64,000 bases of DNA from positions 12,736,161-12,800,160 of the forward strand of contig CAVNZM010000001.1 in the NCBI GenBank assembly GCA_963693365.1. Direction: 5' to 3'. The notes under the pieces were generated by a model that made no database searches, was not told where the DNA came from, and saw nothing but the letters and a program-made list of their open reading frames with translations. This DNA is from Amoebidium appalachense. Its lineage: Eukaryota > Protista > Ichthyosporea. This document shows positions 33,218 to 63,942 of the stretch, piece after piece. The position numbers were made by a program, and so were the translations under genes. Within the stretch, counting starts at the first letter, position 1; every line of letters begins with the position of its first letter.

Positions 33218-33594
33218 AAAACCAGGGTGTGTATACACTAATACTATGCCCTAGTTAACATATGAAGGTAGGAGAACCACGTAAGTATAGAGACAAGAAA
33301 GCGGGTGCTACAGCTAGTCTGACACCGCACGACTAGTGTAACGTTTACTCGGACACACAGCCCCGCCCAAGTGACCAAAGTCTGGAATGTACCAGCCTTT
33401 TATAGTCCCTTGGTTTCCGCCGGTCCGGAGAGCACTGCTCACATACTTTTGTAAGGCGACAGCCATTAGGCATGTGGCCCTACTTATAATAACGTACATG
33501 ACATATACATGAGTACATGATCTTCTCCTGCCAGTGGGTGATCATAATATAGCTTCACGTTATACTACAGTGCTACATGTGTATGCTAGTGCCC

Positions 33595-34883
33595 TCAAGC
33601 ACCCTCAAGCAAATGCCATCTCTGAACGTGTGCATGCAGTGTTTCAGAAGTCCTTTGGCAAAATGGTGGATGTGGAGGCTAATGATTGGGATCATATGTC
33701 TAGGTTTATTGCTCATTCATATAATTCTACCCCTCATGCTGTGACTGGTTTTTCTCCGTTTTATTTGGTCTATGGGCAGGAGGATATTAGTTTGTTAGAT
33801 ACGGCACTTTTGCCGATGGGGGGGGCTGACCGACTAACTTATCCCCACTGGACTGAGTTCCGGGAGCAGCTACTAACCCGGGCCCGGGCTGCACGTGATG
33901 CAGCTCTGGCCCGTACACAGCAGGCACAGACACGTGCAGACGTGTCCACACGTCCGTTACGTGAATTTGCCGAGGGTACTTTAGTTTTAATTAGGGATCA
34001 TACTAGGAAAAAGAGATATAAGCAGGAGCAGGAAGGTAAGGGTGAAGGTGAAGGTCTTCGTAAGTATGGTAAGAAATGGTTGCCTCTTTTCATTGGCCCG
34101 TATAAAATAGTGGCTAGGTTAGGTCCGACGGAATATAAGGTGCAGAGGTTAGATAATGAGAGTGATGTTAGATTTTATAATGTAGATGATATAAAGGAAT
34201 ATTATGATAGGGCCCTTAGGGTTAAACGGCCGGAGGGCCGTCGAGTGTTAGATGCATTCACCCCCGACTATGACGGGTCGGTGGATGTATCGGAGGCTGC
34301 AGTAGATAAAATTATGGATAAAAAGGTTATCGAAGGTAAGGAAGGTAAGGTAAATTATTATTTAATTCGTTTTGAGGGAGGTTATCAGGAAGATCAGTGG
34401 TTGCCTGAGTTTCATTTGGATTGCCCGTTTTCTATTCGTGCTTATGAGGCTAGATTAGTGCAGAGGGAGTTGCCTAGTGCTCCCTCTAGGCCAAAGAGAG
34501 TTATTCCTCAGTTTAATCGTGGTGTGAAAAAGTCGGTGGGGGAGGGGGCCGGGGGGGGAGTGATGCAAATACGCGTAGACACACGGGGGAAGGGGGAGGG
34601 GGGGGGAGGAGACCGAGGAGGAGTGTGAACGTAGTCGTAGGAATTTAATTTATTATCATAGGTGTCTCCGTAGGTATCAAGCTTATGGTGTAGATTAATT
34701 TATTATTTTCTTCGTAATTTATTTAATTTAATTTTTTTCTTAGGAGACTGATTAGTCTATGTCTTTTTAGGGGGTGTTAGATGTAATGTGACTGAGGTGG
34801 GACTCAGCTTTTCCGGGGGCCGGGGGGGGAGTTGACATATACTAATCCGTCTCAGCAGATCAGCCTAAGTCTACGATCGAGAT

Positions 34884-37216: not shown

Positions 37217-40200
37217 TGTTGTAATACGTAGTATTTACATATGGTAAGATCTTCTCAGTTTGTGTTATGTTTCAGTTCATATGCTTAGTGTAAATGCCAC
37301 ACTCCTATTATGTAAAGTGTAGCATCGATCTCCGATATGCTCGTATACTTGTAATCGTGTTGTATCGGCTCTAATCGTGTATTGTAAAATCGATTAGAAT
37401 ATTTATATGTGTGTACACGGATCCACCCACTCAGGGAGAGATGTGTACATGTTCGTGTGTACATAAATATCTCTGGTTATAGTTATGCTATTACTATCTT
37501 GTTTGTTGATCTGTGCTCTCTTTTCCTTTCTCTTTCTCCTTCCTTATTTTCTTTTCTTTCTCTCCTTGTCTTCATGTGTATAATCGTGTTTCTTTTCTAC
37601 TAATATATGTTAGGTAGATTTGTGTTACTTAATACGTGTTCATTGGACGATGACACACTTAGGCTACACTTAGATTAGCATGTGTGTTTAGACTTCGTTA
37701 ATTTACTTTAGTTTTCATGTGTTGCCGGGCTTTAACCAATCATCAAGGTTAAGTGTGATATGTCTGAGTCTTTGCAGTATGTCATAGGTTAGAACTTCCT
37801 TGATGATGACACGAGTTGACCTTAACTAGTGTCTGTGTCCTATCATGTACGTCTCCGCGTACCGGATCTCTCTGAAAGCAATTGGTTCTTAGTGATTGGT
37901 TTCTATTAGAGATAGATCTGATTTCCGACTGGTCGGAAATCATGTATGGATTGGACTTAGAGGAATTTCAGGTATTTATTCGAAGATCAGAATAAATTCA
38001 GTCTAGTCGTGTCTAAACATTGATGTCTGTTGTGTACACTGCTCCGATCGTTCCGTGTTTTGTTGTTGTGTGTGTCTGTGGTGTTTTCACACTGCACCAC
38101 TGTGTCTCTGCTTTCATCCCAAATACTTATACAATTTAACAGGTTATGCAACCCTTTTGCACGCTCCCTACACACATCTAGAACTAGCGCTCGTTTTTCA
38201 ATCATGGATCCAAACAAAACTGGTGTAAACAAAATAACCATGTGGAAAGGTGAAGGGAAAACTGGTCCCGATAGCAAAACCACCTATTTTCAATGGGAAA
38301 TCATTTTTCTCGGCATGATGACCGGCACTAAAGGTGTCCGACTCGTCTCGATGTTGTACTTGCTGACAACTACGTCCCCCCTACCACCGTCGCGGTTGAC
38401 GGTGAACCCCCCTTCTACGGCTACGGCACTACCGCGGAACTCAAGGAGGCCCGCAATTGCCTCCTGCTCCATATGATACAGAACATCGACCCTTCCGTCC
38501 TCACCACCGTTGCCCAGTACCGTATTGGCATGGACCCTGAACGGGCCATGTGGAAATTCCGTCAACACTACCTCCAAGGCAAACCCGATCAGATCCGCAT
38601 CCTTCACCGTCAGTGGGATGCCTGTGCCCTTCAGCCCGGTGAATCATTCACCACCTACCTGAGTCGTCTGCAGACCATCGTGAACCAGCTCCAGTCCCTC
38701 CAAGATGAGTCCATTCACTTCACTCGTCTAGCTGAGAAGTTCTTCAATGAACTCACCACCAGAGACGACCTCACCCCTGAGTTCAACCGTCTTATCGAAG
38801 ACTATCACTTCGGTGATAAGCTATTCCCCGACTTCGAGTCCCTCCACAACCACGTCAAGGGCATCGAGCTACGTCAAGACCTCAAGATGCAACTCCGGAG
38901 CAACCGTGCCCACCGTGCCTCCAAGTCCAGCATGGCATTAAATGCCAGTGCTCCCCCCCGTGATCTTCCTCGCCGTGACTTACGCAACCGACTTGACCGT
39001 ACCCCTGGCACGGACCTCCGAACTCGTCTCTCCCGTCAGCACACCCGATCCCGTTCCCCCCACCGGCCTGCCTTCCGGTCCACGTCTCGTTCCCCCAGTC
39101 GTTCCCGTTTCTCGGGTTCCCGTCGTTCTGATTCCCCGGCTCGTTCTAACACCCCGTCCGTGAAAGCATGCTCCTACTGCCACGAGCCTGATCACACGAT
39201 CATCGATTGCCCTGAGCCGAAATGCCGTATGTCCAGACACAACCGTTCCCGTCAAGGCAGTGAGAAATCTGTCTCCTTTGCTTTCTGGGCATACAATGCT
39301 AGCTCCGTCCCCGTGTCCTCCGACCCTGCCTGGGATTCCGGATGCAACATGACTGTCTGCCCCACCCGTGAGTTCTTCCATGACCTCACTCCCCTTCCGA
39401 CACCGACTCCTGTTGCTGCCTTCAATGGTACCCCCGTCTTGGCCACTCACACCGGCCGTATCGTCATCAACACCACCACCGACCATGGCATTGCCACCCT
39501 TACCATTGAAGCCTACTACACCCCGTCTGGCCAAGCCTTCCTCATTTCAACATCCCAAGCTGCTGCCGAATACATCAAGGGTGATTTGAATGATGCCTCC
39601 ACTCCGTCATTCCTCTTCGACCGACTCACCGGCCGTCATCTCGTCAACCTCCGTCTACACAACGGTCTGTATTACTTCAAGGACTACACCATTCAACCAC
39701 CCACTCGTCCTGTGGCTCTGGCTGCCACTACCAGTGTTAACCCATCCATCTGGCACCATCGTCTGGGGCACCGTGCTATGACCAGCATCAAGGACATGGT
39801 GAAACACGACCTTGTTATTGGTCTCCCCTCGTCTGTCCTCGACTGTGATGTTCCTGATTGTCATGGCTGCATTATGGGTAAAACCACCAAGGCTCCGTTC
39901 AAGGGTGACCGTCCTCACTCCAACATCCCCGGTCATGAATGGCATTGGGATTTTTTTAAGCCTACCACAACATCGTACGGAGGTTCCAAGGTTGCTCTCG
40001 TCACTGTCTGCCGTGCCTCTGGTCTCGTCAAGATCTACCCGATGGCCGACCGTACAACCACCCTGGACACTCTCACAGCTCACACCAACCTCGTTGCTAC
40101 CCATGCCCCCTCCAAAGTTGGTGTCTACCACTTCGACTCCGGCTCTGAGTTCACCTCCAAGGCTACCCGTGCTTTTTGCCTCTCCCAGGGCATCAAGGCC

Positions 40201-43200
40201 AGCTATGCTCCGGTGGACTGCCCTCAACTGAACGGCTGTGTTGAACGTCGTATGCGGTTCCTCCAAGAGATTGTTCGTTGCCTCCTCCATCAAGTCCAAG
40301 ATCAGTCTCTGTCCCCCAAACTGTGGGCTGAGGCCCTCCAACAGGCCGCCTACATTATCAACGTCACCCCGTCCACGACTGCCAATGGTCGTACACCATT
40401 CGAGGTTTTCTACGGTGTCAAGCCCGACATCTCCGAGCTCAAAGTGTTCGGTTGCCCTGCCTACACTCATGTGCCAGCCTCTAAACGGAACAAGCTGGCC
40501 CCCACCGTCAAACTCGGCATGTATATCGGCTATGATCTTCAATCACACTGCCACCGGATCTTCAATCCCACCACCCATTGTGTCGGCCTCTTCCGTGATG
40601 TGATTTTCGACGAATCAGCTTATCTCCCGTCCGACATTCCATCAACACTTCCGACCCCCGACACCACTGCTACTTCGACCACCCCACCCCCCACAGTTGA
40701 CACTGAAGATGATGTTTGTCTGGTGTACTCTGGCCCCCCTCCTGCCATCGTCGTTCCCCCGACACCCCCCCCCCACCGGCCCCCCTGCCCCCGTGCCCGT
40801 CCAGCCTGCCGACCCTCATCCTGCCCCTGGCAACGTCACACCCATCCGACCCGGGTCCCCCGACAACTTCCACTCGGCCCCGTCCAGCCCGGAGGTTGCC
40901 CCCCCTGCAATTCCGAACTTCCAAGTTCCCCCCCCCCCCGTCTCCACCTCCCCCGGTTCCTGCACCCCGTCGTTCTGCCCGTCTACAGGGCAAGGTTGGA
41001 CTTCAAGCCACCACCACCCTGCCAGTCCCCCCCGGTCCCCCCATCAACATCGACCAACTACCCAAACTTGTCCGTCAACTGTGTTCCGGACCCAATGGTG
41101 ACCAGGTCAAGTCAGCCCTCACTGCTGAGTATCAAGCCTTCGTCGACAAAGACATCTTTGAACTTGTTGACCCTCCCCCTGGTGCTAACATCGTCGGCTT
41201 CAAGTGGATTGTCTCCGAGAAAACTCTCAACTCGGCTGGTGACACCAAGATCAAGGCCCGTGGTGTTGCTCAAGGCTTCAGTCAGCAATACGGTGTTGAC
41301 TATGAGTTGATTGAGAGCCCTGTCATCCGTCCGGCTGCTCTCCGTGCTATCCTAGCTCTGGCCGTTGTTGAAGGTCATGACATCCATCAACTCGACGTGT
41401 CTACGGCCTTTCTCAACAGCCCACTCACCGAGACCATCTACATGAAACAACCCCCGGGATTCATCACCATGGCCACACTTGGCAAGGTCTGGAGACTCAA
41501 GAAAGCCCTGTACGGCCTCAAGCAGGCCTCCAAGGCTTGGTACGACTTCCTCGACGGCATTCTTCTTGCCCATGGCCTGACCCGTACTAAGACAGACCCG
41601 TGCATCTACCTCCGGTTCTTCCCCAACAACGATGTGGTTCGGGCTGGTAACTACGTCGACGACTCCACCATCACCAACACCCGGGGTTCTACTGCTGCCA
41701 GTGACCTGGCTGCCCACATCAGCAAGATGGCCAGCTGTCGTATGAGTCCATTTGACCGTATGCTCGGTGTTGATTTTAATCACTCTGATCCCCATCACCT
41801 CCACATGCACCAGAGGTCTTACATCATGGAATCCGATATCATCCACGACTTCAACCTCACCGATGCCAAGTCCAAGTCTACCCCCATCCCTGCAGGCACC
41901 ACCGTCTCCCTGGCTGACTGCCCCCCCCAACCGTTCACCGTGCCCTACCGTGAGTTACTCGGCCGTCTCCTCTGGGTGGCACGGTGCACACGTCCCGACA
42001 TTGCCTATGCCATCGGCTTCCTTGGTCGGTTCAGCACCAACCCCGGCAAGACTCACTGGGACCTTCTCCGTCGTGTGGCCCGGTACCTGCTCGGCACCAT
42101 TGACCTTGGCATTGACTACAAGTACTCGGCCACCCAGCCCCCCATACTCGAATGCTACACGGATGCTGACTTTGCTGGTTGTGCCGACAGCAAGAAGTCT
42201 ACCACCGGCTACATCATCGAGTTTGCTGGTATGCCCATCATCTGGTACTCCAAGCTCCAGCCCATAACGGCCACCAGCACCACTGAAGCTGAGCTGATTG
42301 CTCTCAATGCTGGCACCCAAGAAGTTGCTTGGGTCCGTGACCTCTTCAAGGAACTCGGCTGTCCCATGCTTGCTCCGACTCCGGTGTACTGTGACAACCA
42401 CTGGCAGTCGACCATTGCCATCGTCAACTCCACCGGCATCAAGCACCGTACCAAACACATTGCCGTCCGGTATCACAACACCAAGGACTACATTGCAAGT
42501 GGGGACGTGGTTGTCCACTACGTTGAGTCAGCCCACAACTTAGCTGACATCCTCACCAAACCCCTCCCCGGCCCGAGTCATGTCAACCATCGTGCTCGAC
42601 TTTGTTTACCGGATATTGTGGATTGACCCGTCCTACTTCAAGAGTGATTTTCTAATGTTTACTACTTCCTTTATCATAATCATTATTTCATATGAATATT
42701 GCCTTTGTGGGTATGCCCACTTAGGGTTTATATGTAAGGTTTGACCTGTACCATGACTCTACTCTATCTTTCACTGGTTTAAAACCCAGTTAATCAAACC
42801 CCGACTATACACGTTATACATATTCGTTGTTTTGGTTCCTTCCCCCCCCCCCCCCTCCCCCCCCCCCTTTCCCCCCCCTTCCCCCCCCCCTCCCCCCCCC
42901 TTCTCCCCCCCCCCCCCCCCCCCCCCGGGAAAAGTACACACTTTAATTTTTTTTTTCGTTTCTGTTCTCAAGTGGGGAGATTTCACTAGTTCAGTGGGGA
43001 TATGATAACACAAACTTCAAAGTCTTAAGTGGGGATGTTGTAATACGTAGTATTTACATATGGTAAGATCTTCTCAGTTTGTGTTATGTTTCAGTTCATA
43101 TGCTTAGTGTAAATGCCACACTCCTATTATGTAAAGTGTAGCATCGATCTCCGATATGCTTGTATACTTGTAATCGTGTTGTATCGGCTCTAATCGTGTA

Positions 43201-43964
43201 TTGTAAAATCGATTAGAATATTTATGTGTGTACACGGATCCACCCACTCAGGGAGAGATGTGTACATGTTCGTGTGTACATAAATATCTCTGGTTATAGT
43301 TATGCTATTACTATCTTTTTTGTTGATCTGTGCTCTCTTTTCCTTTCTCTTTCTCCTTCCTTATTTTCTTTTCTTTCTCTCCTTGTCTTCATGTGTATAA
43401 TCGTGTTTCTTTTCTACTAATATATGTTAGGTAGATTTGTGTTACTTAATACGTGTTCATTGGACGATGACACACTTAGGCTACACTTAGATTAGCATGT
43501 GTGTTTAGACTTCGTTAATTTACTTTAGTTTTCATGTGTTGCCGGGCTTTAACCAATCATCAAGGTTAAGTGTGATATGTCTGAGTCTTTGCAGTATGTC
43601 ATAGGTTACTAATAGAACTTCCTTGATGATGACACGAGTTGACCTTAACTAGTGTCTGTGTCCTATCATGTACGTCTCCGCGTACCGGATCTCTCTGAAA
43701 GCAATTGGTTCTTAGTGATTGGTTTCTATTAGCGATAGATCTGATTTCCGACTGGTCGGAAATCATGTATGGATTGGACTTAGAGGAATTTCAGGTATTT
43801 ATTCGAAGATCAGAATAAATTCAGTCTAGTCGTGTCTAAACATTGATGTCTGTTGTGTACACTGCTCCGATCGTTCCGTGTTTTGTTGTTGTGTGTGTCT
43901 GTGGTGTTTTCACACTGCACCACTGTGTCTCTGCTTTCATCCCAAATACTTATACAATTTAACA
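37217..43964 (+). mobile_element. Copia family 1, copy B, full length, TSD CAGTA
   Basis: LTRs at 37217-38141 and 43036-43964 (~5 differences by eye). PBS GGTTATGCAACCC at 38142. PPT AAGTGGGGA before 43036. CAGTA at 37212-37216 and 43965-43969. Confidence 0.98.
38204..42626 (+). pseudogene. Copia gag-pol of copy B; frameshifts at ~38347 and in poly-C tracts ~40770-41040, plus two 6-bp insertions
   Basis: ORFs 38030-38476, 38473-41310 and 40716-42626 carry all copia motifs through NLADILTKPL. Confidence 0.95.
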
Positions 43965-45925
43965 CAGTAGGAGCATGCTTTCACGGACGGGTTGTTAGAA
44001 CGAGCCGGGGAATCAGAACGACGGGAACCCGAGAAACGGGAACGACTGGGGGAACGAGACGTGGACCGGAAGGCAGGCCGGTGGGGGGAACGGGATCGGG
44101 TGTGCTGACGGGAGAGACGAGTTCGGAGATCCGTGCCAGGGGTACGGTCAAGTCGGTTGCGTAAGTCACGTTGAGGAAGATCACGGGGGGGAGCACTGGC
44201 ATTTAATGCCATGCTGGACTTGGAGGCACGGTGGGCACGGTTGCTCCGGAGTTGCATCTTGAGGTCTTGACGTAACTCGATGCCCTTGACGTGGTTGTGG
44301 AGGGACTCGAAGTCGGGGAATAGCTTATCACCGAAGTGATAGTCTTCGATAAGACGGTTGAACTCAGGGGTGAGGTCGTCTCTGGTGGTGAGTTCATTGA
44401 AGAACTTCTCAGCTAGACGAGTGAAGTGAATGGACTCATCTTGGAGGGACTGGAGCTGGTTCACGATGGTCTGCAGACGACTCAGGTAGGTGGTGAATGA
44501 TTCACCGGGCTGAAGGGCACAGGCATCCCACTGACGGTGAAGGATGCGGATCTGATCGGGTTTGCCTTGGAGGTAGTGTTGACGGAATTTCCACATGGCC
44601 CGTTCAGGGTCCATGCCAATACGGTACTGGGCAACGGTGGTGAGCACGGAAGGGTCGATGTTCTGAATCATATGGAGCAGGAGGCAATTGCGGGCCTCCT
44701 TGAGCTCCGCGGTAGTGCCGTAGCCGTAGAAGGGGGGTTCACCGTCAACCGCGACGGTGGTAGGGGGGACATAGTTGTCAGCAAGTACAACATCCACAAG
44801 TCGGACACCTTTAGTGCCGGTCATCATGCCGAGAAAAATGATTTCCCATTGAAAATAGGTGGTTTTGCTATCGGGACCAGTCTTCCCTTCAGCTTTCCAC
44901 ATGGTTATTTTGTTTACACCAGTTTTGTTTGGATCCATGATTGAAAAACGATCGCTAGTTCTAGATGTGTGTAAGGAGCGTGCAAAAGGGCTGCATAACC
45001 TATAAAATTATATAAGTATTTGGGATGTAAGCAGAGACACAGTGGTGCAGTGTGAAAACACCACAGACACACACAACAACAAAACACGGAACGATCGGAG
45101 CAGTGTACACAACAGACATCAATGTTTAGACACGACTGAACTGAATTTATTCTGATCTGCGAATAAATACCTGAAATTCCTCTAAGTCCAATCCATACAT
45201 GATTTCCGACCAGTCGGAAATCAGATCTATCTCTAATAGAAACCAATCACTAAGAACCAATTGCTTTCAGAGAGATCCGGTACGCGGAGACGCACACGAT
45301 AGGACACAGACACTAGTTAAGGTCAACTCGTGTCATCATCAAGGAAGTTCTAACCTATGACATACTGCAAAGACTCAGACATATCACACTTAACCTTGAT
45401 GATTGGTTAAAGCCCGGCAACACATGAAAACTAAAGTGAATTAATGAAGTCTAAACACACATGCTATTCTAAGTGTAGCCTAAGTTTGTTACCGTCCAAT
45501 GAACATGTATTAAGTAACACAAATCTACCTAACATATATTAGTAGAAAAGAAATACGATTATACACATGAAGACAAAGAGAGAAAGAAAAGAAAATAAGG
45601 AGGGAGAAAGAGGAAGGAAAAGAGAGCACAGATCAACAAACAAGATAGTAATAGCATAACTATAACCAGAGATATTTATGTACACACGAACATGTACACG
45701 TCTCTCCCTGAGTGGGTGGATCCGTGTACACACATATAAATATTCTAATCGATATTACAACACACGATTAAAGCCGATACAACACGATTACAAGTATACA
45801 AGCATATCGGAGATCGATGCCACAATTTACATAATAGGAGTGTGGCATTTACACTAAGCATATGAACTGAAACATAACACAAACTGAGAAGATCTTACCA
45901 TATGTAAATACTACGTATTACAACA

Positions 45926-47630
45926 AACAGATGGGCCCTGGCAGGCTGGCGTCTTTGGGCGGGACCGCAAGAGCCGGCGCCAGACTCTTTCCCAGGCACC
46001 TGCGACAACTGCAAGGCGCGGGGGCAACGTGTGGTGTAAACAGCCCCGTCGTGGGGGGCAGGGACGTCAGTGACCGTGTTGCTGGTATGAAGGTTTTATT
46101 AGGGGGTAGGCCGTCTCTTGGGTTGTTGTTGTTGTATGGGAGTTGTGTGGTGTTATTTTTCGGCGAGTTTTCTACTGGTGCCTGGCGTTTTCGACGTGTG
46201 TATGAGTCCTGTGTTGGCGACGTGTGTGGTTAGGGTCAGTGGAATAGAAAGTCCTGCTGCTGTCTGGGAGCTCGGCCCCCTGACGAGGGGGCTGGGGGGG
46301 GGTCGAAGTGTAGTCATGGCAGTGGCAGGCCCCCACTGTTGTGAACCCCCGTCGTCAAAGGGCCTGGTGCTGAGGCCCCTTGGAGTGGCTGCCCTGGGCC
46401 TGGTGTTGAGGCCCTTTGGAGTGGCTGCCCGTAGTGTTGTTGAGTAGTGTTGTGGTGCCCAGTGCAGCAGTAGGCCTTAGACACACCGCTGGGTAGGGCA
46501 CGGTTCAAGGCGGAGGCATTCCCAAACCACCGGGACCTACGTAGTAGGTGTCTTTGTCGGGTAGGGGAATGGCCAGCAAGAGAGTCTGGAGGTGTACGTC
46601 ACATGAGTCTGGAGGTGTTCGTCACGGCATGTTTGGTTGTGTTAGGAATTCTTTGTGGATGGGGCATGCTGAGTGTGGTTGTATGGATGGCGTCTGGCAT
46701 CATGTCTGTTGCTATGTTCCACTCGATATAACATGGTGCCAGGGGCATGGGGTTTTGGGTGCAGGTTGTGGACGGGGGCAGAGGTGCATCTACAGGGCAA
46801 CGTCAGTGGCGGTTCATATTATCCTTGTTTTGGGGTTGGGTTGGGTACTAACCATGCTGGGGTGGTGCGGGGATGCATGTATATGTTTTTTATGTTATAT
46901 GTTATATGTTGCTTCCTGCATGGTTAGCGGTAGTTGTAGTCGCTCAGCACATAACTTTATTTTGTTTTTAGGTAGTTTTTACTGAGGTGGAACTCAGTTA
47001 TTTTTTGTGCGAGGGGGGAGTTGTCATGTGCTGAGCTGATTCGTATTAGTTTGCTTCTATATTTTGTGTTTTGGTGAGTGAATTTCGGGGGTTTTCTTGC
47101 ATAGTGATGCCGGGGTCTAAGTGGGGTATGAGGAGATTTATCAGTGGTATGGGGAGAACCTGATGCGGCGGCGGCTGATTGTTAAAGCTGCGCAGCGTGC
47201 ATGCGCCACGCCTCTGCGTACTCTCCATGTTAAATGTTGTATTGCTTCTTGCTGTGTGCTTGGCGAGACCCATGTTGCCTGCTCGCGTGTGTGTATGCTT
47301 ATATGTATTGTGAGTAAAGGTGTGTACGTGTTGTAGTGCTGTAGGGGTGTCTGAGGTGGCGGTAGCCAATGGTGTGGAGTGCGTGTAGTCTGTGGGGGAG
47401 GGAGTGTTGTGATTGGCTGAATGTCACTGTGGTATTTGTCTGGCCAGTGGGCCGCGTGTCTGTGAAGTGTCTCGCGGGGTCGCGGGCTTTTCGAAGTTCT
47501 TCTAAGAACACGTTTTGTCTCGCTTCCCACCCAACTCAAAGAAAAGTTTATAGGTATACACGGTTTTAAGCCCCTTTAAGCGTGCAGATAGTTAGAGTAG
47601 TTCGTGTACACTCTGTTTGTTGCCACGACA
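45926..47630 (+). mobile_element. 3' end of a second gypsy-like LTR element (non-coding tail, PPT, LTR 47022-47630)
   Basis: ACTGAGGTGGAACTCAG hairpin plus GAGGGGGGAG PPT, as at 34791-34831. LTR termini TGTCATG...CACGACA (6/7 inverted match). Confidence 0.7.
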
Positions 47631-48610: not shown

Positions 48611-48760
48611 TGTTGGAATACGTCACCATGTATGACAGCAAGAGCCTTGAAGTATGTATGTGTCCTAGCTTGTTTGTATTCGTGTCTGCTTTCCTTCTTT
48701 GTGCTCTCTCTCTCTCTCTCTCTCTCTTTCTCCCTCTCCCTCTCTCTCTCTCTCTCTCTT

Positions 48761-48838
<78 letters not shown>

Positions 48839-51800
48839 CCCCCCCCCCCCCCGTATCTCTCTCTCCCTAAGGCTTGTTTCTGTGGGCACAGATATCTGTA
48901 GATCTGTGCACACCTGGCTCTCTTGCCTGATAAGAACTTATTGTATTTTATTTCTGTTTGCTCTCCTCTGTTTATCTGAGAGGTAGCGTGATTGGCTAGC
49001 CTCACTGGTTGTCTTTCCTTTATTTCAAAATGGCTTAGTTTTGTTCTCAAAAGGATGGCTCGCCAATAGTCGCGAGCGAGTACATCTGTAGATTGTGTTG
49101 TGCATTCCTGTCTATTAATATATGTGTGTTGTGATTGGACAATAGATATATATGGAATTCGGTTTATTGCAAAGTGTCTTCACTTTGAGAGTGTCGACTA
49201 TTAGGAAATATATGTATTTAAATAAGTTTCTTTATAGAGACGAACATAAATATATATGTGAGTTAATAGTGACTAGATGTATAATTACTTAATTTATTTA
49301 AGTAAGAGTTTCTAAACTTTAGTTTAATCGGAAGTTGGAATGCGTATGCTCTGTCGGAATGTGTTTTTCTATCTTCTGATAGAACCGATTGGTTCTCCCT
49401 CTTTAGTTGTGATAAGGTGATAAGTCGCAAGTACAAAAGGAACCGAGAGCACAATAAAGATTCAGTTGTTGTTTGAAATCTTTCAATGTCTCGTGAACAA
49501 CTCCGATTGCCCTCTCATTAATGTGTTAGTCGTGTTTTACATGACACCTCTGTGCACTCTGCTCCCTTAGACCCGTACAAAACAACAGGTTAAAGGCCCA
49601 GTTTTCGCACGCTCTCGCAACACATACTCTCGCTGCAATCGAAAATATTCAAATTTGAATACCGATCTGATTCCTCTCTCACGCATCATCTGACTGATTG
49701 ATCACCATGTCGGAGAAACCTGCGTATCTCAACCTCACCCCCTGGAAAGGGGATGACACCACGGACAAGAAGTCCGGCAAACGTCTCACCTATTATGAGT
49801 GGGAACCCGTCATCTTCCGGTACCTACGTACTACCACCGCGGCCAAGTTAGTGCCCGTCATCAAGGCCCCCGAGTGGGTCGACCCTTCCGACGAGAACGA
49901 GTGGCACGGCTATGACACTGAGGAGGCCTACACCGAGGCTTCCAACTTCCTTGAACAGATGTTTACTCAACTCGTCTCCAATGATGAGCTGTATAACTCT
50001 GGTCAAATCCACGATGATGTGTCACCTGCCCAAGCTTTCCACAACCTCCGTATGACCTATGCGGCTGAACGTGAAGATCGTGCTCGTCAAATCCTCCTCG
50101 ACTACCATGAGCTTGAACTCAAGGACTTCAAGACCGTCACGGCCTACCTCACCATGGCACGCCGTCTGTGCACTACCCTGCACATCCTCGAAGAGCCCAT
50201 CCCCCACAAGACTATGGTTGATAACTTCTTCATCCACCTCAAGAAGAACCGTAAGTTAGTTTGTACCGACATCCAGGCCATGATTGCCGACTACTTCCGT
50301 CGTACCATCAACTACGAGACCTACAACCGTCTAATCAGTGACATCCGAGCTGCAGAGATCCGTGAAGGTCTCATCGACTCTGGGTCCGGGTCCTCCTCCA
50401 CCGTCCGAACAGCACGTGCCCTGCAAAGCCGTGTCCTCACCAAGGACGACCTCAGACACCGGATCCCCCGACGTGACAGCTCCGTCTCCCGTCACCCCCG
50501 TGGTCGTCCCACCGATCGATCCCCCTCAGTTGACCGTGATTACTCCCGGTCCCGTTCCCCCGGCTATCGTTCCCGGTCACCCTACCCCCCACGTAAAGGG
50601 GGTAACCGTCATTCCCAGCCACCCTGAGCCAAGACCACTGGCTCCCTCGACTGTGCCTACTGTCACGAAGACCATCATGTCACACAGTGTGACAAACCTG
50701 GCTGCTCAATTGCCCGTCGTCATCGTGCCAGCACCAAGTCTGGAAAAGAGGTGCATTTTGCCCTCGTGTCCACCACGGCCTCCCTACCCATGGACCCCTG
50801 CTGGGACTCGGCTTCAAACGTCCACGTGTGCCCAGTAAAGGAGTACTTCTCTACTCTTGAGCCATGCCCCCCGACTGACGTCCACGGCCTCGGCATCGTC
50901 ACTGCACATCACCGTGGTGTCATCAACCTGGCCGTCACCTACAACGGAGTAACATCAGTACTGAGCCTCAACACCCTCTATGTACCCGACTCCCCAGCCT
51001 TCCTGATTTCACCCTCAATGGCCTCCAAGTCGGGTCTCCGTGCCCACCTCGATGATGAGGATGAATTCCCATCCTACCTCTACACTCGTGGTGGCAACAT
51101 CGTGTGTTCCCTCACAGGCACAGATGGACTGTACTTCATCACCGACTATGAGATACGTCCCTCCATCCCTCGGACCGTCACTGCTCTGGTAGCCAACGTC
51201 AAGGTCAACAATGATCCTCAGCTCTGGCACCACCGTCTCGGCCATCGTGCCCTGTCCACCCTCACCAAGATGGTGAGAGGTGACCTCGTGACAGGCCTCC
51301 CCTCATCCCTCTCAGTGGCTGACACCACTGACTGCTTCGGTTGTGTCTCCGGCAAGACCACCAAGGCCCCATTCTCCGGCACCAGAACCCAGTGCCCCTT
51401 CCCCGGTGCCAAGTGGCACATGGACTTCTTCGAGCCTCCCTGTGCCTCCTATGGTGGCTACAAGGTGGCCCTCGTGTGTACCTGTGATGCCTCCGGCTAC
51501 ACCATCGTGTACCTCCTCCGTGATCGATCCGAAAGTCTCGAATACGTCAAGGCCCTGGTTGAGACTACTGACAAGCAACCCGACAAGGTGGTGACCCACT
51601 TCCGATCAGACTCTGGGTCCGAGTTCACCTCCCATGCTATGGAGCAGTACTGCCAGTCCAAGGGCATCATACAGGAATTTGCCCCGGTTGACTGCCCCCA
51701 ACTCAACGGCTTCGTTGAACGTAAGATGAGGGATCTGCAGGAGATCGTTCGGTGCTTCCTTCATCAGGACAAGGCCGACTCCCTTTCCCCCAAGCTGTGG

Positions 51801-54800
51801 GGAGCTGCTCTCAAGCATGCTGCCTACATCATCAACGTGACCCCGGCCAGAGCTGCCAATGGCCGTACCCCGTTTGAAATTTTCTACGGTGTCAAGCCTG
51901 ACATCTCCCACCTGCACGTGTTCGGCTGCCCAGCCTCATTCTATGTACACGTCCCTGCATCCAAACGAGACAAGTTGGCCTCTACCGTCACACTCGGCAC
52001 CTACGTGGGCTGGGATATCACCAACAAAGCCCACAAGATCATGAATCTACGTGGCAACACGGTCAACCTCTACCGCGATGTCGTCTTCGACGAATCACAA
52101 TTCACCACGGCATCCAATCAGATTTCTGTGCAGGCCACCAATCAGACGACCTCAATCGATCCATCCCTGCATTCCGGAAATTCCAATTCCGATGACGATG
52201 AAATTCCGTCGGTGATTATCCGTCGTTCCCCCCGTCGTGTACCTGCCCCCGTGGCTCCACCCACCCCCCCCCCCCCACCGGCCAGCAACCCCTGCTGCCG
52301 GCCCCTGCCGTCAATGACCACGTACCTGGTCATCTCACCCCGGTTCGTCCTGGGTCTCCGGAGTTCCACTCGGCCCCGTCCAGCCCCGTGTTATCCGACT
52401 CCCCCCTCAACACGGCACCAATCCCTGGCTTCCAGGCCCCCATCCCCGACCACCGAGTGTCTGTCCCAGACACCCCCCCGGCCCCTGAGCCCCTCCGTAC
52501 CGTCCCCCGTCGTTCCTCCCGTCTCTCCTCCCGGCCTGCCATGGCTATGGTGAGCATCTCCCGACCCAGCCTTGATGTGTCTCAGCTGCCCCGGTCAATT
52601 CAGAAGCTGTGCTCCGGCACCAAGGGTGATGAAGTGGTGACTGCCCTCACTGCCGAGTACAAGGCTTTCATCGACAAGGACATCTTCGACGTAGTTGAGC
52701 CCCCCTCCGATGCCAACATCATCCGATTCAAGTGGATTGTCACGGAGAAGGTCCTCAACTCTGCTGGTGACACCAAGATCAAGGGTCGTGGTGTGGCCAA
52801 GGGTTTCACCCAAGTCTACGGTGTTGACTATGGTGAAAACTCTTCCCCCGACGTCGTCATGTCCTCCTCCGTCCGTGCCCTGCTTGCCCTCGGTGTGCAA
52901 CAGGACCACGAGATCCATCAACTCGACATCAGCACGGCCTTCCTCAACAGCCCCCTCGACGAGACTTTGTACATGGAGCAACCTCCTGGTTTTATCCTCC
53001 CTGGCAATGAACACAAAGTCTGGAAACTCAAGAAGGCCATCTACGGACTCAAGCAGGCATCCCTGGCATGGTACGAGTTCTTCAACTCCATTCTCATTGC
53101 CCACGGCCTCACCCGTCTCCGTTCCGATCCGTGTGTCTACTTCCGTCAGTTCCCCAACGGGCACATCATCCGTTCGGGCAACTACGTTGATGATGCCATC
53201 ATCACCTGCACACGGCACTCCACCATCATGCAGGGGCTTGTTCGTCACATCACGAAGTCTGCCGAGTGCAAGGTCGGTCTGCCAGACATCTTCCTCGGCA
53301 CCCAACTGCTGTACACCCGTGACTCCCTCAAGCTGCTGCAGTCCTCCTACATCAAGGACATCATCACCGACTTCAACCTAGTCGATGCCAAGCCTAAGGC
53401 CACCCCTATTCCCGTGGGCACCATCATCAACGAGACCTCCCTCTCATCCCTGCCCACCACCGTCCCCTACCGTGAACTCCTCGGCCGTCTGCTGTGGGTT
53501 GCTCGATGCTCCCGGCCTGACATCTCGTATGCCATTGGCTACCTCGGCCGATTCAGCTCCAAGCCCACCAAGACTGCCTGGGAGCTTCTCCTCCGTGTCG
53601 TTCGTTACCTGCTCGGCACCATCAACCTCGGCCTCTACTACAAGAAGAAGGCCCCCAACAGCAAGGTGCCCATCCTTGAGTGCTACTTGGATTCTGACTT
53701 TGCTGGTTGCCCCACCACCCGTCGTTCCACGTCTGGGTACGTCATCCTCCTCGAAGGCACCCCCGTCACCTACCACTCCAAGCTGCAGACGATCACTGCA
53801 ACTTCCACCTGTGAGGCCGAGCTCCTGGCCCTCAATGCTGCCGTGCAAGATGTTGTCTGGCACCGTGATCTACTAAAGGAGCTGGGCTACCCCATGACCG
53901 AGCCCACCCCCGTGTACTGTGACAATCAGTCCACCATTGCTCTGGTCCACTCCAACACCATCAAGCACCGGACCAAGCACATTGCCGTTCGTTACTTCAA
54001 CACCAAGGACTACATCAACAGTGGGGACGTCACTGTCACCTACATCGACACCAAGAAGAACCTGGCCGACATCTTCACCAAGCCTCTGGCTGGTCCGGCC
54101 CACGACACACACCGTGCCAACCTCAGTCTCCGTGACTGACCCGTGCACTGGTGTTCATCATCGAGTGGTTTCTGAGTAGGTTGGGGCCCTGGACAGCAGT
54201 TGACACACCTACGGTGATCAAGATGCCTCCCAACGAAAGTCTACTACTCCTCATCGTTTCTCTTCATCAGTGGGGACTCTGTCTTACATCGTCATGTGTG
54301 TGCATCTTCAGTGGGGATTATTCTCCACCATCCGTCGTTTATTTATATTCATATCCCACCATATATTGGTTTTCTTCTATATTCGACTTTATATATATGT
54401 CGAACTGGGATGGCGTCCCAGTATAAATAATTATCTATAGCCATGGCGTGCTGGTTGACTGCCAGTCTAAACCTAGTCCACGGGATGCACCTTCCCCGTG
54501 TCTTAACTGGTTGACTACCAGTCTATAAATCAGTCCACAAGATGTTCATGCCTTGTGTTTACCTGGGTGGTCCCCAGTATAAAACATTAGCCACCAACAC
54601 GTCACACATACACTAGTGTTTCCTCTATATATATATATCGACAATAATGAACCACCATGATTTATTGTTCCGAGTCTTCAGAGGCAACCGTCGTTGTGTG
54701 CCTCTTCAGTTTTGATTCTCTCCTTCCCACCTCAAGGATCTTCGGTTTGCATCCTCGAGTGGGGAAACTTGAGTGTGACGGCCCCTCCTGTGTTTGGACC

Positions 54801-55042
54801 TCATCTACCGTCACATCAACAGACACGAGAACACAAACTTCAACCCCTTGAGTGGGGATGTTGGAATACGTCACCATGTATGACAGCAAGAGCCTTGAAG
54901 TATGTATGTGTCCTAGCTTGTTTGTATTCGTGTCTGCTTTCCTTCTTTGTGCTCTCTCTCTCTCTCTCTCTCTCTTTCTCCCTCCCCCCTCTCTCTCTCT
55001 CTCTCTTTCTCCCTCTCTCTCTCTCTCTCTCTCTCTCCGTCT

Positions 55043-55079
<37 letters not shown>

Positions 55080-55826
55080 CCCCCCCCCCCCCCCCCCGTA
55101 TCTCTCTCTCCCTTGTTTCTGTGGGCACAGATATCTGTAGATCTGTGCACACCTGGCTCTCTTGCCTGATAAGAACTTATTGTATTTTATTTCTGTTTGC
55201 TCTCCTCTGTTTATCTGAGAGGTAGCGTGATTGGCTAGCCTCACTCGTTGTCTTTCCTTTATTTCAAAATGGCTTAGTTTTGTTCTCAAAAGGATGGCTC
55301 GCCAATAGTCGCGAGCGAGTACATCTGTAGATTGTGTTGTGCATTCCTGTCTATTAATATATGTGTGTTGTGATTGGACAATAGATATATATGGAATTCG
55401 GTTTATTGCAAAGTGTCTTCACTTTGAGAGTGTCGACTATTAGGAAATATATGTATTTAAATAAGTTTCTTTATAGAGACGAACATAAATATATATGTGA
55501 GTTAATAGTGACTAGATGTATAATTACTTAATTTATTTAAGTAAGAGTTTCTAAACTTTAGTTTAATCGGAAGTTGGAATGCGTATGCTCTGTCGGAATG
55601 TGTTTTTCTATCTTCTGATAGAACCGATTGGTTCTCCCTCTTTAGTTGTGATAAGGTGATAAGTCGCAAGTACAAAAGGAACCGAGAGCACAATAAAGAT
55701 TCAGTTGTTGTTTGAAATCTTTCAATGTCTCGTGAACAACTCCGATTGCCCTCTCATTAATGTGTTAGTCGTGTTTTACATGACACCTCTGTGCACTCTG
55801 CTCCCTTAGACCCGTACAAAACAACA
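48611..55826 (+). mobile_element. Ty1/copia family 2, full length, TSD GGCTC
   Basis: LTRs at 48611-49587 and 54859-55826 (TGTTG...CAACA). PBS GGTTAAAGGCCCAG at 49588. PPT GAGTGGGGA. GGCTC at 48606-48610 and 55827-55831. Confidence 0.98.
49707..54139 (+). pseudogene. Copia family 2 gag-pol with an in-frame TGA (50625-50627) and frameshift(s) in the C-rich IN-RT linker (~52260-52390)
   Basis: ORFs 49698-50627 and 50751-52553 share a frame; 52388-54139 follows. Motifs WDSAS, WHHRLGH, WHMDF/RSDSGSEF/VERK, YVDD, LDSDFAG, NLADIFTKPL. Confidence 0.95.
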
Positions 55827-56999
55827 GGCTCAGACTCAGAACCATCACCCTCACGAACGTCATCCCCATCCCCCACACGATCAGACACACCAGGAGAGCG
55901 CACAGGTGACTGGGGTTCGTAATCTGAGTCACTACCCTCGTCACTCTCAGACCCCGAGCTCTCGCTAGACCCATTCTGCTCCCACTCAGAATCATCAGAT
56001 TCAGGCTCAACATGGAAAGCAGCAACATTAATAGGCCTAGTGCCCCGAAGAGTCCTGCGCCCACGCAACTGAGTAGCACTGCATAACACAACGGCCAGGT
56101 GTGTGCATGCCACGTGTCTCTGTATCGTCACAGCTTCCAGCCCAGACATGGGTGGAGCCATAATAAACACACGGTAATAATCAGCACACTCACCAGAATC
56201 ATAAGGGGAACTCTCCCGACCACCCTCACGCGTGGCCGAACGCCGGCCAGGCTCACGGCTGCGACTGCGGGAACGGCGCCCGCCTCTCTCAGCCCCAGTG
56301 CCAGCCATCTCAGCTGCACGTTCTTGCCACCACAGTGGCGCACACCAACGTGTCAAAAGGGTTCCCTACTGGTCGTGCCCACGGCCCCAACACCGTGACA
56401 GCAGCCTACTCCTCACAGTGGTCACTGTCACACAGTACCACCGGTTGCACTTGCAAAGCACAGTGCAAGCAGCTCCAGCCACGCTGGCAGCCACCCACGT
56501 TCACGGTGAAAGTCGGAACGTCGCAGTAGCACGCCCGATACCAAGTTGATGGCGCAAACATCCAAATGTGGCCAACAAATTTTAGGTATCCAATCACAGG
56601 AAAAAAGCGTGAATCGCAACCAATCACAAAGTTGTAACTAGGAGAAATTTCTTTGTCGTTCCGACTCGTTCGGATCTTGGCAACCGGGAGCGAGAGGTCC
56701 AAAGTTTCAAAGTTTCAAAGTATGTTACTGACATGCATGGTGCTCGAAGGTGAAAGCTGTAAAGGCTACCGTAGGCTACTCCTCACACTAACCAAATTAC
56801 TAACATTTTTGACTCCTAAGGGAGCAGGTCTCTGAATCCTTCGAGGACGAAGGATCTTGAGGGGGGAGTGATGTGGTGTGACTGAAGCACACGCCGTTGA
56901 GAATCCCTACCACACTATGAACCAATGATATGGATGTAATGATTACCATATATGGATAGCCTAGCTGAGCCCTGATCCCAGAGTACATGTATGACCGTC

Positions 57000-57948
57000 T
57001 GTAAATTTATATAAGTATTTGGGACTGGGAAGTAAAGCAGAGACATGCTGGTGCAGTGTAAAAACACCACAGACACACAACAACAAAACACGCGGGACGA
57101 TCGAAGCAGTGTACACAACAGACATCAATGTTTAGACACGACTAAACTAAATTTATTTCGATCTTGTTTATATATTCGAAATTCCCTTAAGTCAAACCTA
57201 TCCGTGATTTCCGACCAGTCGGAAATCAGATCTGTCAATAAAAGAAACCAATCACTAAGTACTAATTGCTTTCAGAGAGATCTGGTACGCGGATATGTAC
57301 AGGATAGGGCACAAACACTAGCGAAGATCAACTTGTGTCATTATCGAGGCCCTGGGAGCGAGGGAAAGTTCTAACCTATGACACACTGCAAAGACTCAGA
57401 CATACCACACTTAACCTTGATGATTGGTTAAAGCACGACAACACATGAAAACTAAAGTAAATTAATGAAGTCTGATCACACATGTCAACCCAAGTGTAGC
57501 CTAAGTGTGTTACCGTCCAATCAACACATATTAAGTAACACAAATCTGCCTAACATATATTGGTAGAAAAGAAATACGATTATACACATGAAAACAAGGA
57601 GAGAGAGAAAAGAAAATAAAGAAGGAGAAAGAGAAAGGAGAAGAGAGCACAGATCAACAAACGAGATAGCAATAGCATAACTATAACTAAAGATATTTAT
57701 GTACACACGAACATATACACGTCTCTCCCTGAGTGGGTGGATCCGTGTACACACATTAATATTCTAATCGATATTGCAACACACGATTAAAGCCGATACA
57801 ACACGATTACAAGTATACAAGCATATCGGAGATCGATGCTACACTTTACATAATAGGAGTGTGACATTTATACTAAGCATATGAACTGAAACATAACACA
57901 AACTGAAAAGATCTTACCTAACTAAAGTAGATACTACGTACTACAACA
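57000..57948 (-). mobile_element. Solo LTR of copia family 1, TSD CCGTC
   Basis: Full LTR homology with no internal sequence. CCGTC at 56995-56999 and 57949-57953. Confidence 0.96.
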
Positions 57949-60815: not shown

Positions 60816-62882
60816 CTAGTTGTGGATCACCACGGCCTTTTCTGTGGCTGCGGTTCTGCCCGGGGTGCGTGGTGGGGGGTGGTCCAGGCCCAGCCATGCG
60901 GCGCTGTCTGGGGCCATGACGGAGTACAGCACCTCCCTCTCGTCCTCCACATAGTGTGCCCGGCCCCCAAGTATCACGGCCACCCGCCACTTGGCCAGGT
61001 CTGCTGGCTTCACCCCGGCCTCTGCTGCCAGGCGCTTCTTGGTGTCAGCCAGGGGCTCCCCCCTGCGCACGACAAAGTAGAAGGGGCTGCTGTGGGTCAG
61101 GCCGGGGGTCTTTGCAAAGTGCTTGACCTGCACCCTGCGGCCCTCCCCCGGCACTGGCTGGCCGTCCTGCTGGTCCGGTGGCACGGGCTCAGCGCGCAGG
61201 CTGAAGCCGTAGTGGGTGTCCAGGCTGTCGATGGGGGCCGTGGGCTGGGCCTCGGCCTTGATGCTGCCCCCGCTGATCTCCAGCAGCCGCAGGGGCCCGC
61301 TAACCCCCACCTGGGTGCGCACCTGGGCCAGCAGGTCGGCCACCGTGGCCGTGGCCGGCAGCAGCACGGTCAGGGTGCTGCTGTCGCTGCCGCTGCGCCA
61401 GGCCAGGCTCAGGCTGCGCATGGCCTCGACCTGGGCCAGGGGCACCCCCAGCAGCTCGTAGTACAGCATGCCCCGTGCAGCCTGCGCTGCATTTGCACTG
61501 GGCACCGTGGTGCGCAGCATCGTGCCCAGACTCTCCCCGTCCGATCCACTGCGCCGCACGGCCTGGGCCGGGCCGTTTGTCTGGGTGTCGTGCGGGTAGA
61601 AGCGCAGGTACTCGGGGTCGGCCCCCAGCCGCTCGGCCACCCGGGAAGCCACGGTGGCATAGTCCAGGCGGCAGCTCAGCTGCAGCACAAACTGGCCCCC
61701 TGCCGTGCTGCCGCCAGCCCCTCTTGGGGACCTGCTGGCCGCACTGTGGCTGTCGCTGTCGGGGCTCTGCTCTCCCTCGTGCCCCTGCTCCCCACCCTCC
61801 CCCTCTGCCTCGTGCTCCCCCTCATGGGGCGTGTCTGCTGGCGGGGCCACCCTTGGGGGGTCTGGTTGGGGCTCTGTGGCAAGGGTGTGTGTGTGGTCGT
61901 GGTAGCTCTTGAAGGTCACGTCGACCCTGTCGCTCAGCAGGCGGAAGTAGCCGGGCACGGTGCTTGCGCCACGGTCCCTGTCTCTGTCGGGCACGTGGCG
62001 CTGGAAGCACAGGATGTCCCCGTTGAGCAGCTCACACTCCACAAGGGTGCGCCCCCCCACACATGGGTCCACCATGCCCACCTGCACCACAGGTCAGTGC
62101 CTGCGCCACCACCGAGTGTCTCCACACATGGGGGAGAGGGGGGGAGGGGGGGGAGGGGTGTGGTTGTTGGAGACGGGGGAGCAAGGTGGTGCATGGCTCC
62201 TGCAGGCAGACAATGAGTGGAAAGTGGGAAAGAGCAAGTTGGATTGCTGCAGATCTTACTATGGCAAACAAAACATTGTAACGGTACCATAAAAACATGC
62301 CCCATGCAAGGCCCCGCATATTCGCAGAAGCACACAATCACAGAACGGGTGCCCCCCCCCCCCCCCCCCCCCCCCCCCTCCCCTTTCCCCCTGCCCGCCC
62401 GCCCGACCAGGCAGGCCGACCATAGCACAAGTAAGGCGAAACAACAGCGACAACAGCACAGGGCAAGCACACACGCCACACAAGGCCCATGGCCCACCTT
62501 GATCTCCTCGTACACATCGATGCGCTCATCCGGGGGCAGGCCAGCGCGGGCACACAGTGCGGGGTGCAGGCTGGTCACGGTGTCTCTGCGGTGGGCAAAC
62601 ATGTGGCCCAGGCAGCTGAGCCGCTGCTGGCTGGGCTCGTAGTACTTGATGAACAGCAGCAGCGTGTCAGAGTCCCACGGGGGAAACAACCCGTCAGGCG
62701 ACTCCTGCACCCAATTAATATGGTTTGAGCCCATAGTACCCATGTTGCACGTGTGTGTGCATGAACACACGTGTGCCCGTGCAGATTCTGGCCACCGTGG
62801 CCGTGTGCATGGGCCATGATTGTCTATAATGCCACCAGCCTGTGTATGCCACATCCATGTGCTGGTGGGGTTGGTGCAGCAG

Positions 62883-62916
<34 letters not shown>

Positions 62917-63942
62917 GTTCCCATACAGGCCCTGCCTGTGCGTTTGAGCAGTTGCATGTGTCTGCATGTACATGCAAGGCTGTGTGTGCATGCAAGTGAG
63001 AAGAGAGTAAGGGAGCACGCGCATCAGGCTGTGTGCATACAGGCAGTTGTGGGTGTGTGATGTATGTCTGTGCCCATTCTAGTGTGTCTGTATGTATGTG
63101 CACCACTGGGTATATGTACACGTGCCCATGTGTAGCCAGGTGTGTCTGTACATGTATGTATGTGTATGCATTAGGCGCGTGTACATGCAAACACATGTAG
63201 GCACCTGTGTGATGTGCACACGCACGTGCATTTGTGCATATCTGTGTGTGGTATGCGGATGCATGTGTATTTGTGCGTGGTATGCGGATGCATGTGTATT
63301 TGTGTGTGGTATGTGGATGCATGTGTATTTGTGTGTGGTATGCGGATGCATGTGTATTTGTGTGTGGTATGCGGATGCATGTGTATTTGTGTGTGGTATG
63401 CGGATGCATGTGTATTTGTGTGTGGTATGCGGATGCATGTGTATTTGTGTGTGGTATGCGGATGCATGTGTATTGTGTGTGGCAAGGCCATGCCCGTATG
63501 CGTGTGTGTCCATGCGCAGTGCACAGGCATGCATGTGGGTGTTGTGCACACACAGGCATGCATGTGGGTGTTGTGCACACACAGGCATGTCATGCGTACA
63601 GTGTGTACGTGTGTAGATGCACGTAGCATGTATGCACATGTGTACCTCGAGATACAGGCGCCACACTGCGCCTGCGCCTGATATTTTAGCCAGCTGCAGC
63701 AGGGTTGCGTCCTGCCCTGGCGGCACGGTGACCACGGCCTCGGGCCTGATTGTCTTGTTGAGGCGGTAGACCACACTCCACAGGCGCTGCTGCTGCACCC
63801 CCACCCCCGTGCTGTCTGCTATCAGGCCCTGCAGCTGGCTCCATGCCATGTCCTTGCGCACCCGCAGCGCAAGCACATCGGGCCCGTCCCAGCGGCACAG
63901 GTCGTACTCGTGCCACGCTGCAAAGTCCTTCTGCCGCGCCAC
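60816..63942 (-). CDS. USP7: USP7/UBP12-13-like deubiquitinase, C-terminal UBL domains (3' exons only; the gene continues beyond the window)
   Basis: Exons 63942-63646, 62704-62498 and 62081-60816. Motifs QRLW..RLNKTIRP, LLLFIKYYEP, YEEIK, ELLNGDILCFQ, LYYELL, PFYFVVRRGEPLADTKKRL, WLGLDHP, EKAVVIHN*. Confidence 0.93.
63243..63475. repeat. Intronic 29-bp minisatellite (GTGTGTGGTATGCGGATGCATGTGTATTT), ~8 copies
   Basis: Directly visible. Confidence 0.95.

Follow-up and report, generated by a model that had tools for sequence, protein, structure and literature searches.

Fungal repeat-induced point mutation (RIP), ZAP-related CpG suppression in RNA viruses and restriction-site avoidance in phages are cases in which parasites are depleted of a short defence motif. 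Here we describe the near loss of the trinucleotides CGC and GCG from the coding bodies of two families of Ty1/copia long terminal repeat (LTR) retrotransposons and from a gypsy-type fragment in a 64,000-nucleotide stretch of the ichthyosporean Amoebidium appalachense (GCA_963693365.1, contig CAVNZM010000001.1, positions 12,736,161 to 12,800,160 of the forward strand). This whole stretch is called the window, and its own numbering is used below. The closest described system is the methylome of the same organism (Sarre et al. 2024, PMC11244446), an intron- and transposable element (TE)-rich genome with context-specific CG methylation that reaches about 70% at CGC/GCG and about 20% at other CG, a pattern repeated in PMC12344493. 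In the bodies of active genes the methylation is mainly at CGC/GCG, described as a default that does not silence, while TEs are methylated whatever the CG context, and methylation outside CGC/GCG correlates with silencing (PMC11244446). The window agrees with this picture in its context-specific methylation and in its intron-rich host genes (USP7, a CitMHS-family transporter and a PDZ protein). On the other hand, the available part of that paper does not report a loss of CGC/GCG from TE sequences.

Two other systems are close. ONSEN/COPIA78 (Cavrak et al. 2014, PMC3907296) is likewise a copia element without methyltransferase contexts, read as evasion, and its promoter is without CG and CHG, so that the silencing contexts are absent from the LTR. 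Unlike ONSEN, the elements studied here keep the motif in the LTR, purge it from a coding body of 4 kb, retain ordinary CpG and lose the default context of active genes. A methylation-free promoter of the ONSEN type was excluded, since the LTRs of our family 2 hold 7 CGC/GCG against 5.6 expected (5') and 7 against 5.9 (3'). In the case of DNMT3C and young mouse retrotransposons (PMC11099192), the flank preference of a methyltransferase co-evolves with element sequence, which is a likeness to our case, but the preferred context is enriched in the mouse elements and almost eliminated here.

The frames of the family 2 element (49707-54139) contain 255 CG dinucleotides, with an observed/expected ratio (O/E) for CpG of 0.74. 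Within them, 3 CGC were found against 61.2 expected and 4 GCG against 36.8, the expectations being derived from dinucleotides by a Markov model; this gives 7 sites against 98 (Poisson P ~5e-33). An earlier note on this DNA, made from the letters alone, had found neither trinucleotide in 50761-51300 and 52561-54139, and the counts are zero in both intervals, against Markov expectations of 5.7 CGC and 3.2 GCG in the first and 22.0 and 13.5 in the second. It had extended the observation to the family 1 reverse transcriptase (RT), from 41100, and to a gypsy integrase, also correctly: 41100-43000 has no CGC (19.6 expected) and no GCG (11.7 expected), and none of the 35 CG sites of the gypsy integrase (33513-34550) lies within CGC/GCG, while synonymous shuffling predicts 6.0 CGC and 5.6 GCG. 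Other CG contexts are kept, as the note had said. In both copia pol regions, all 7 NCGN tetramers containing CGC or GCG have O/E of 0.00-0.03 and the remaining 9 have 0.92-1.64, which excludes a general CpG suppression like that of ZAP avoidance, where the dinucleotide itself is not kept. After CGC and GCG, the next trinucleotide in the depletion ranking of copia pol has O/E of 0.53. The pol regions 39201-42626 and 50628-54139 are also low in TA (0.51), CTAG (0.25), GATC (0.52), CATG (0.58) and TGCA (0.61).

Arginine codons avoid CGC although other codons favor C endings, another point of the earlier note that stands. CGC makes up 2 of 87 CGN codons in family 2, where 415 of 713 other four-fold codons end in C (P=5e-27), and 4 of 82 in family 1 copy B, with 364 of 691 (P=4e-19). 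The loss is seen across all three frames and at codon junctions, CGC and its reverse complement GCG are lost symmetrically on the sense strand, and the C preceding GC is replaced mostly by T. When the amino-acid composition of the RTs was compared with that of 32 homologs, neither a loss of Arg nor a gain of Cys/His was evident. Among 18 + 18 constrained Arg sites in the two RTs, no CGC and no preceding G were found.

The family 2 element is composed as follows.

48611..55826, plus strand: family 2 Ty1/copia LTR retrotransposon, with TG...CA ends and 5-bp target site duplications (TSDs) at 48606-48610 and 55827-55831.
48611..49587, plus strand: 5' LTR (CGC/GCG 7 vs 5.6 expected).
49588..49890, plus strand: primer-binding site and leader, reaching into gag; the 5' zone that escapes the purge (of the 21 CG sites in its first 300 nt, 8 are CGC/GCG).
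49707..50627, plus strand: gag frame, partly purged (ratio 0.30).
50628..52553, plus strand: protease-integrase part of pol, with Pol_BBD, gag_pre-integrs, rve and SH3_retrovirus domains.
52202..54139, plus strand: RT-RNase H part of pol in a second frame, with RVT_2 (CGC/GCG 0 vs 29.8 in the RT region).
54859..55826, plus strand: 3' LTR (CGC/GCG 7 vs 5.9 expected).

The assignment of families 1 and 2 to Ty1/copia comes from the position of the integrase upstream of an RVT_2-type RT (Pfam), and the structure is the expected one, with paired LTRs, TG...CA ends, a 5-bp TSD and a purine tract ahead of the 3' LTR. The LTR pair of family 2 is 98.4% identical, and the stop codon of its gag is private to this copy, since four of four public runs show a different base at 50625.

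The purge is not uniform along the elements. Pol has lost nearly all CGC/GCG (ratios of 0.03-0.05) and gag a part (0.30-0.45), and the LTRs show little or no loss (0.25-1.25, with small counts). A single CGCG remains in the protease-integrase part of family 2 (52074-52077). Within 300 nt after the 5' LTR, 14 of 39 CG sites are in the CGC/GCG context, compared with 8 of 471 beyond 600 nt (P=4e-12). This sparing of the 5' end is a difference from restriction-site avoidance.

For comparison, 159 copia RT loci (80 + 79) were taken from metagenome and genome collections, and 110 of them had at least 8 sites expected; the other 49, with fewer than 8, were left out of the ratio. In these 110 foreign RTs the CGC/GCG ratio ranges from 0.44 to 1.25, with a median of 0.86, and none comes close to the RTs of the window, with 0 against 29.8 and 0 against 29.3 expected in the two families. 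In the pool of all 159, Arg is encoded by CGC in 536 of 1887 cases against 484 expected. The purge is thus not a general copia trait. Close relatives of the family 2 RT were not found among viral or metagenome contigs; the 159 loci used for comparison, found with an alignment as the query, are distant copia loci. The second group of 79 loci (L081-L159) comes from contigs assigned to bacterial or archaeal assemblies, and they are most likely eukaryotic contamination.

Methylation in the host could be read in one non-repeat stretch of the window.

14775..15105, plus strand: host non-repeat stretch used for the methylation read-out in runs X19 and X20.

The public run X19 shows one-sided G>A runs on the family 2 element, and from this signature we infer that it is a cytosine-converted library. 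Single contigs of X19 and X20 span 14787-15105, while run X5 yields none there. In both, the cytosines in the GCG context are unconverted (3 of 3), and the cytosines in other CG (7 of 7) and outside CG (21 of 21) are converted (3/3 vs 0/7, Fisher P=0.008). The contigs show 35 differences for 39 cytosines, which fits a fourth unconverted GCG at 14796. The read-out covers 290 bp on one strand, with GCG on the top strand only, and uses the majority base of the contigs; the two runs are two samples of one study and are not independent of any published methylome. The host therefore has a trinucleotide-specific CG methylation, as read in this stretch. The pattern matches the published one of Amoebidium appalachense and by itself makes Amoebidium the likely host. 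The purged contexts are exactly CGC and GCG. The purge is a genuine signal, very strong and specific to this host, and is linked to a methylation context that was observed directly. The earlier note had proposed a trinucleotide-specific system of methylation and silencing, of which the methylation part is supported; in the available text of PMC11244446, silencing correlates with methylation of CG outside CGC/GCG. Its statement of CGC/GCG-biased 5-methylcytosine (5mC) as a mark on repeats does not agree with the same source, where it is a widespread default that includes active gene bodies.

All host controls were drawn from the window, and the exon set has 1220 codons in 11 stretches, chosen by a scan of GC content at third codon positions (GC3) and tblastn, which may favor high GC3.

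60819..63942, minus strand: USP7 exons, which keep Arg CGC and G|CGN and lose synonymous CGC/GCG.
21183..28259, plus strand: CitMHS-family transporter exons, seven stretches, two with Pfam hits.
31421..32080, minus strand: PDZ-domain exon of the host.

The earlier note had described the USP7 exon as full of both trinucleotides. It does have 27 and 24 of them, but at synonymous positions it too holds fewer than expected (NNC|GC 5 vs 15.5; NGC|G 10 vs 24.9). Searches with USP7 gave no match among longer proteins and, with HMMER, the best one at 44% and the next at 29-36%, from mites and fungi among other sources. In the host exons CGC is the main CGN codon for Arg (32 of 60). Masked non-coding host DNA (13,383 bp) has an O/E for CGC of 0.57, against 0.55-0.78 for the other contexts, i.e. 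a mild extra loss. We also observed that host exons (e.g. 60819-62069) are more depleted of CpG outside CGC/GCG (odds of 9 and 6) than the elements (3 and 1.7-1.9), and that this CpG was lost from host exons although it is unmethylated in the tested host stretch.

Passive decay and selection can be told apart by codon position, since pure decay predicts loss at silent sites with retention at positions 1-2 of Arg CGN codons, where deamination changes the protein. CpG decay by 5mC deamination (PMC12994199) has a likeness in the host exons: protected Arg CGN within CGC/GCG is retained (44 vs 42.1 expected) and synonymous CGC/GCG is lost (54 vs 189), with ratios of 1.05 and 0.29, while other CG stands at 105 against 176. 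In the pol set of the elements (2230 codons), the protected sites are lost too (2 vs 68.4), as are the synonymous ones (2 vs 202), with ratios of 0.03 and 0.01, and other CG is at 243 against 338. Expressed as odds of C:T loss, the element body has 532 [92-21000] for the target, 3.0 for other CG and 157 [41-1330] for protected Arg, and the host has 19 [9-39], 9 and 0.5. In the elements, Arg after a codon ending in G is AGA/AGG in 4 of 5 cases and in 5 of 173 otherwise (P=1.5e-5); in gypsy the corresponding values are 4 of 4 and 9 of 27, while the host uses CGN in 30 of 34. AGA and AGG are not products of deamination, so the elements use escapes other than deamination. Of 17 Arg sites common to both families, the third base differs in 8, and none of the 34 codons is CGC. 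Unlike CpG decay, the elements lose protected sites, use AGR escapes and keep other CpG. From these codon patterns, passive 5mC deamination alone fits the host exons and does not fit the element purge, where protected Arg sites are lost as well. Deamination likely contributes at synonymous sites, as in the host exons.

Family 1 is present in several copies, which allow a comparison between recent relatives.

37217..43964, plus strand: copy B, full length, with 5-bp TSD, inside copy C (pol ratio 0.03).
1..5202, minus strand: copy A, cut by the window start (pol ratio 0.05).
35279..37216, minus strand: copy C, integrase-side part (ratio 0.05).
43965..45928, minus strand: copy C, LTR and gag part, split from the integrase-side part by copy B.
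56999..57948, minus strand: solo LTR, ~10% diverged from copy B (ratio 0.85).

Divergence among copies A, B and C amounts to 1.5-1.9%, and 43 of the 74 differences are synonymous against 21.2 expected, an excess which indicates that they diverged largely under selection. Synonymous gains of CGC/GCG between them number 1 against 6.4 expected (P=0.005); when the first 500 nt are set aside, there is none against 5.1 (P=0.002). Other CG sites are gained in normal numbers (4 vs 2.9-3.8). The numbers are small and the three copies are unrooted. At positions common to A, B and C, C>T changes were found in 1 of 24 target positions, 6 of 311 other CpG and 17 of 1313 non-CpG, so the shared target positions are not hypermutated. 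Most of the 24 target positions are in the spared 5' zone and few in the body, where power is low; with this limit, a 30-fold hypermutation gives P=0.001 and a 10-fold one is allowed (P=0.19). A C>T burst as in RIP was thus not seen between copies, and a RIP-like hypermutation was rejected with the same low power in the body. In a rough model, the missing gains combined with the survival of a shared synonymous integrase site have a probability of at most 0.005 for rates from 20- to 300-fold. The spectra of LTR pairs and tandem duplicates have too few target sites to inform. The earlier note had left open whether the elements evade the system or were drained by it; drain alone fails both the codon-position and the between-copy tests, and evasion fits better.

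We suggest that the purge likely reflects ongoing selection against the default methylation target more than passive decay alone, a reading that draws on sequence patterns. As for its cause, active copies carrying CGC/GCG may be disfavored by a host methyltransferase that marks these sites and seeds full silencing, an account to which we give about even chances. The lineage of an element would pass through copies in a state similar to that of active genes, with a protected 5' end and a body methylated at CGC/GCG only, so that only this context would be costly. The default methyltransferase of the host would mark CGC/GCG in the element body, the marked sites would nucleate silencing of a long, intronless and CG-dense body, and copies with the motif in the body would leave fewer descendants. 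In Amoebidium genes, N6-methyladenine (6mA) lies at the 5' end and 5mC peaks as 6mA fades, over the first three or four nucleosomes (PMC12695648). A rise of 5mC only past the 5' 6mA zone fits the spared first ~300 nt after the LTR.

Several points weigh against this proposal. The methylation evidence comes from the one 290-bp stretch, on one strand and at contig level, in two samples of one study. In host genes the CGC/GCG mark goes together with activity (PMC11244446), and since they tolerate it, a cost specific to the elements must be assumed; the seeding of silencing is a proposed step. Resident copies of family 2 look, weakly, as if they end up methylated at CG outside CGC anyway: among the 40 of 331 converted rows listed, 4 of 4 CpG Gs were absent and 12 of 12 non-CpG Gs present. 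If so, the purge would not prevent eventual silencing. Deamination is strong, with odds of 15-19 in host exons, and by a rough estimate selection that disfavors hypermutable Arg codons could, given a very large population, amount to ~40-fold, which is at the lower confidence limit of 41 for protected Arg. Finally, the test of gains has only the three unrooted copies, nonsynonymous gains of CGC/GCG are not reduced (1 vs 1.4-1.5), and among 15 family 2 variants the gains, 0 against 1.6, are not significantly reduced (P=0.17).

The same purge could be driven by mutation, if methylated CGC/GCG in active bodies were deaminated quickly, possibly with the help of an enzyme as in RIP, and selection acted on protein integrity only. 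Synonymous sites would then be emptied by mutation itself, and lineages whose Arg codons are CGC or G|CGN would die out more often. This explanation, unlikely in our view, accommodates the sparing of the 5' end equally well; it also agrees with the context-biased drain of host exons (target odds of 19 and 15, other CG 9 and 6) and with the replacement of the C before GC mainly by T. However, only 1 of 24 shared target positions has C>T (30-fold P=0.001, a test weakened by the location of most positions in the 5' zone), no single rate between 20- and 300-fold fits both the missing gains and the surviving integrase site (<=0.005, rough model), and host non-coding DNA has only the mild extra loss of CGC (0.57 vs 0.55-0.78). 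We consider it improbable that CGC/GCG methylation is a self mark similar to restriction-modification, under which unmethylated retro-cDNA or viral DNA would be flagged as new and either brought into a fully methylated, silent state or destroyed, and to which the elements would have responded by removing the recognized word from their coding bodies one codon after another, as phages do with restriction sites. Such a system would explain why host genes do not avoid the motif (protected sites at 1.05), unlike elements that pass through unmethylated cDNA, and in the available text of PMC11244446 methylation is highest in the youngest TE insertions and DNMT1 has a zf-CXXC domain. But the motif persists in the LTRs and over the ~300 nt that follow the 5' LTR, which is not what a nuclease or sensor of free cDNA would leave, and a hypothetical sensor blind to the 5' end would be needed.

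Selection on RNA or translation, through a ZAP-like RNA sensor or a preference for codons or codon pairs, is very improbable as the agent that removed CGC and GCG. Copia elements of another protist, S. rosetta, can be under translational codon selection (PMC6875170), and the preference for CGT in Arg could by itself be translational. Nevertheless, the loss affects all three frames and the codon junctions, it strikes CGC and GCG alike on the sense strand and coincides exactly with the context of DNA methylation, and host mRNAs favor CGC for Arg (32 of 60 CGN). An ancestral or generic copia composition, unrelated to the host, has a close to negligible probability and is largely refuted already. 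The two families are indeed related, with 64% identity between their RTs, but their four-fold sites are near saturation (81 of 160 identical, with 37% expected at random), the unrelated gypsy fragment is purged too, and 0 of 110 foreign RTs come close.

The remaining features of the window are mostly repeats.

33513..34628, plus strand: gypsy-type integrase fragment, with SH3_Tf2-1 and Integrase_p58_C matches, each below the curated cut-off.

The end of this fragment (34300-34500), which resembles a chromodomain, did not match the Pfam chromo domain at E<=0.001. The fragment adjoins the region 35279-45928, where copy B interrupts copy C, a member of its own family that runs the other way. The LTR of copy A (4267-5202) is ~24% diverged from those of B (37217-38141) and C, while the internal parts differ by only 1.5-1.9%, so copy A is likely the result of an LTR swap or a recombinant element. 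Family 2 is flanked by Arg/Ser-rich open frames on the minus strand (47891-48622 and 55760-56365), with CGC/GCG ratios of 1.1 and 0.79 and no Pfam matches; they may belong to a single element or gene that the insertion cut in two. An inverted fragment of 160 bp (47649-47807) is ~85% similar to the start of the family 2 LTR. Tandem units of ~950 bp, 84% identical, were found in 18003-19883, with normal CGC/GCG and no Pfam matches, and their ungapped differences are nearly all at places where one unit has C or G. Short exon-like stretches occur in 10820-14517, one with a weak match to TFIID-18kDa (E=0.008). Pfam scans of 51 unassigned open reading frames and of 47891-48619 revealed no DNA transposon or LINE, which could have served as a control of another class, and Rfam and ARAGORN gave no matches in the window, rRNA included.

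A loss of CGC/GCG from the TEs of Amoebidium was not found in the literature, in a search with subscription papers, figures, supplementary tables and bioRxiv supplements outside its reach. A preprint on retrotransposon adenine methyltransferases (10.64898/2026.05.21.726589) lists evasion strategies of TEs, and in its available part a purge of CGC/GCG is not among them; PMC5391955, in the part available, concerns APOBEC hotspots. The methylation system is known, and the purge of its default, non-silencing motif on the side of the elements appears to be unreported.

The codon-position comparison is a way to tell evasion from mutational decay with sequence only, and through it the sequence of transposons could reveal the specificity of a host methyltransferase. 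We know of no agreed function for gene-body methylation outside animals and plants. If selection on the motif is indeed ongoing, the CGC/GCG mark would not be inert but would cost parasites something, and this would support a defence origin of gene-body methylation near the root of animals.

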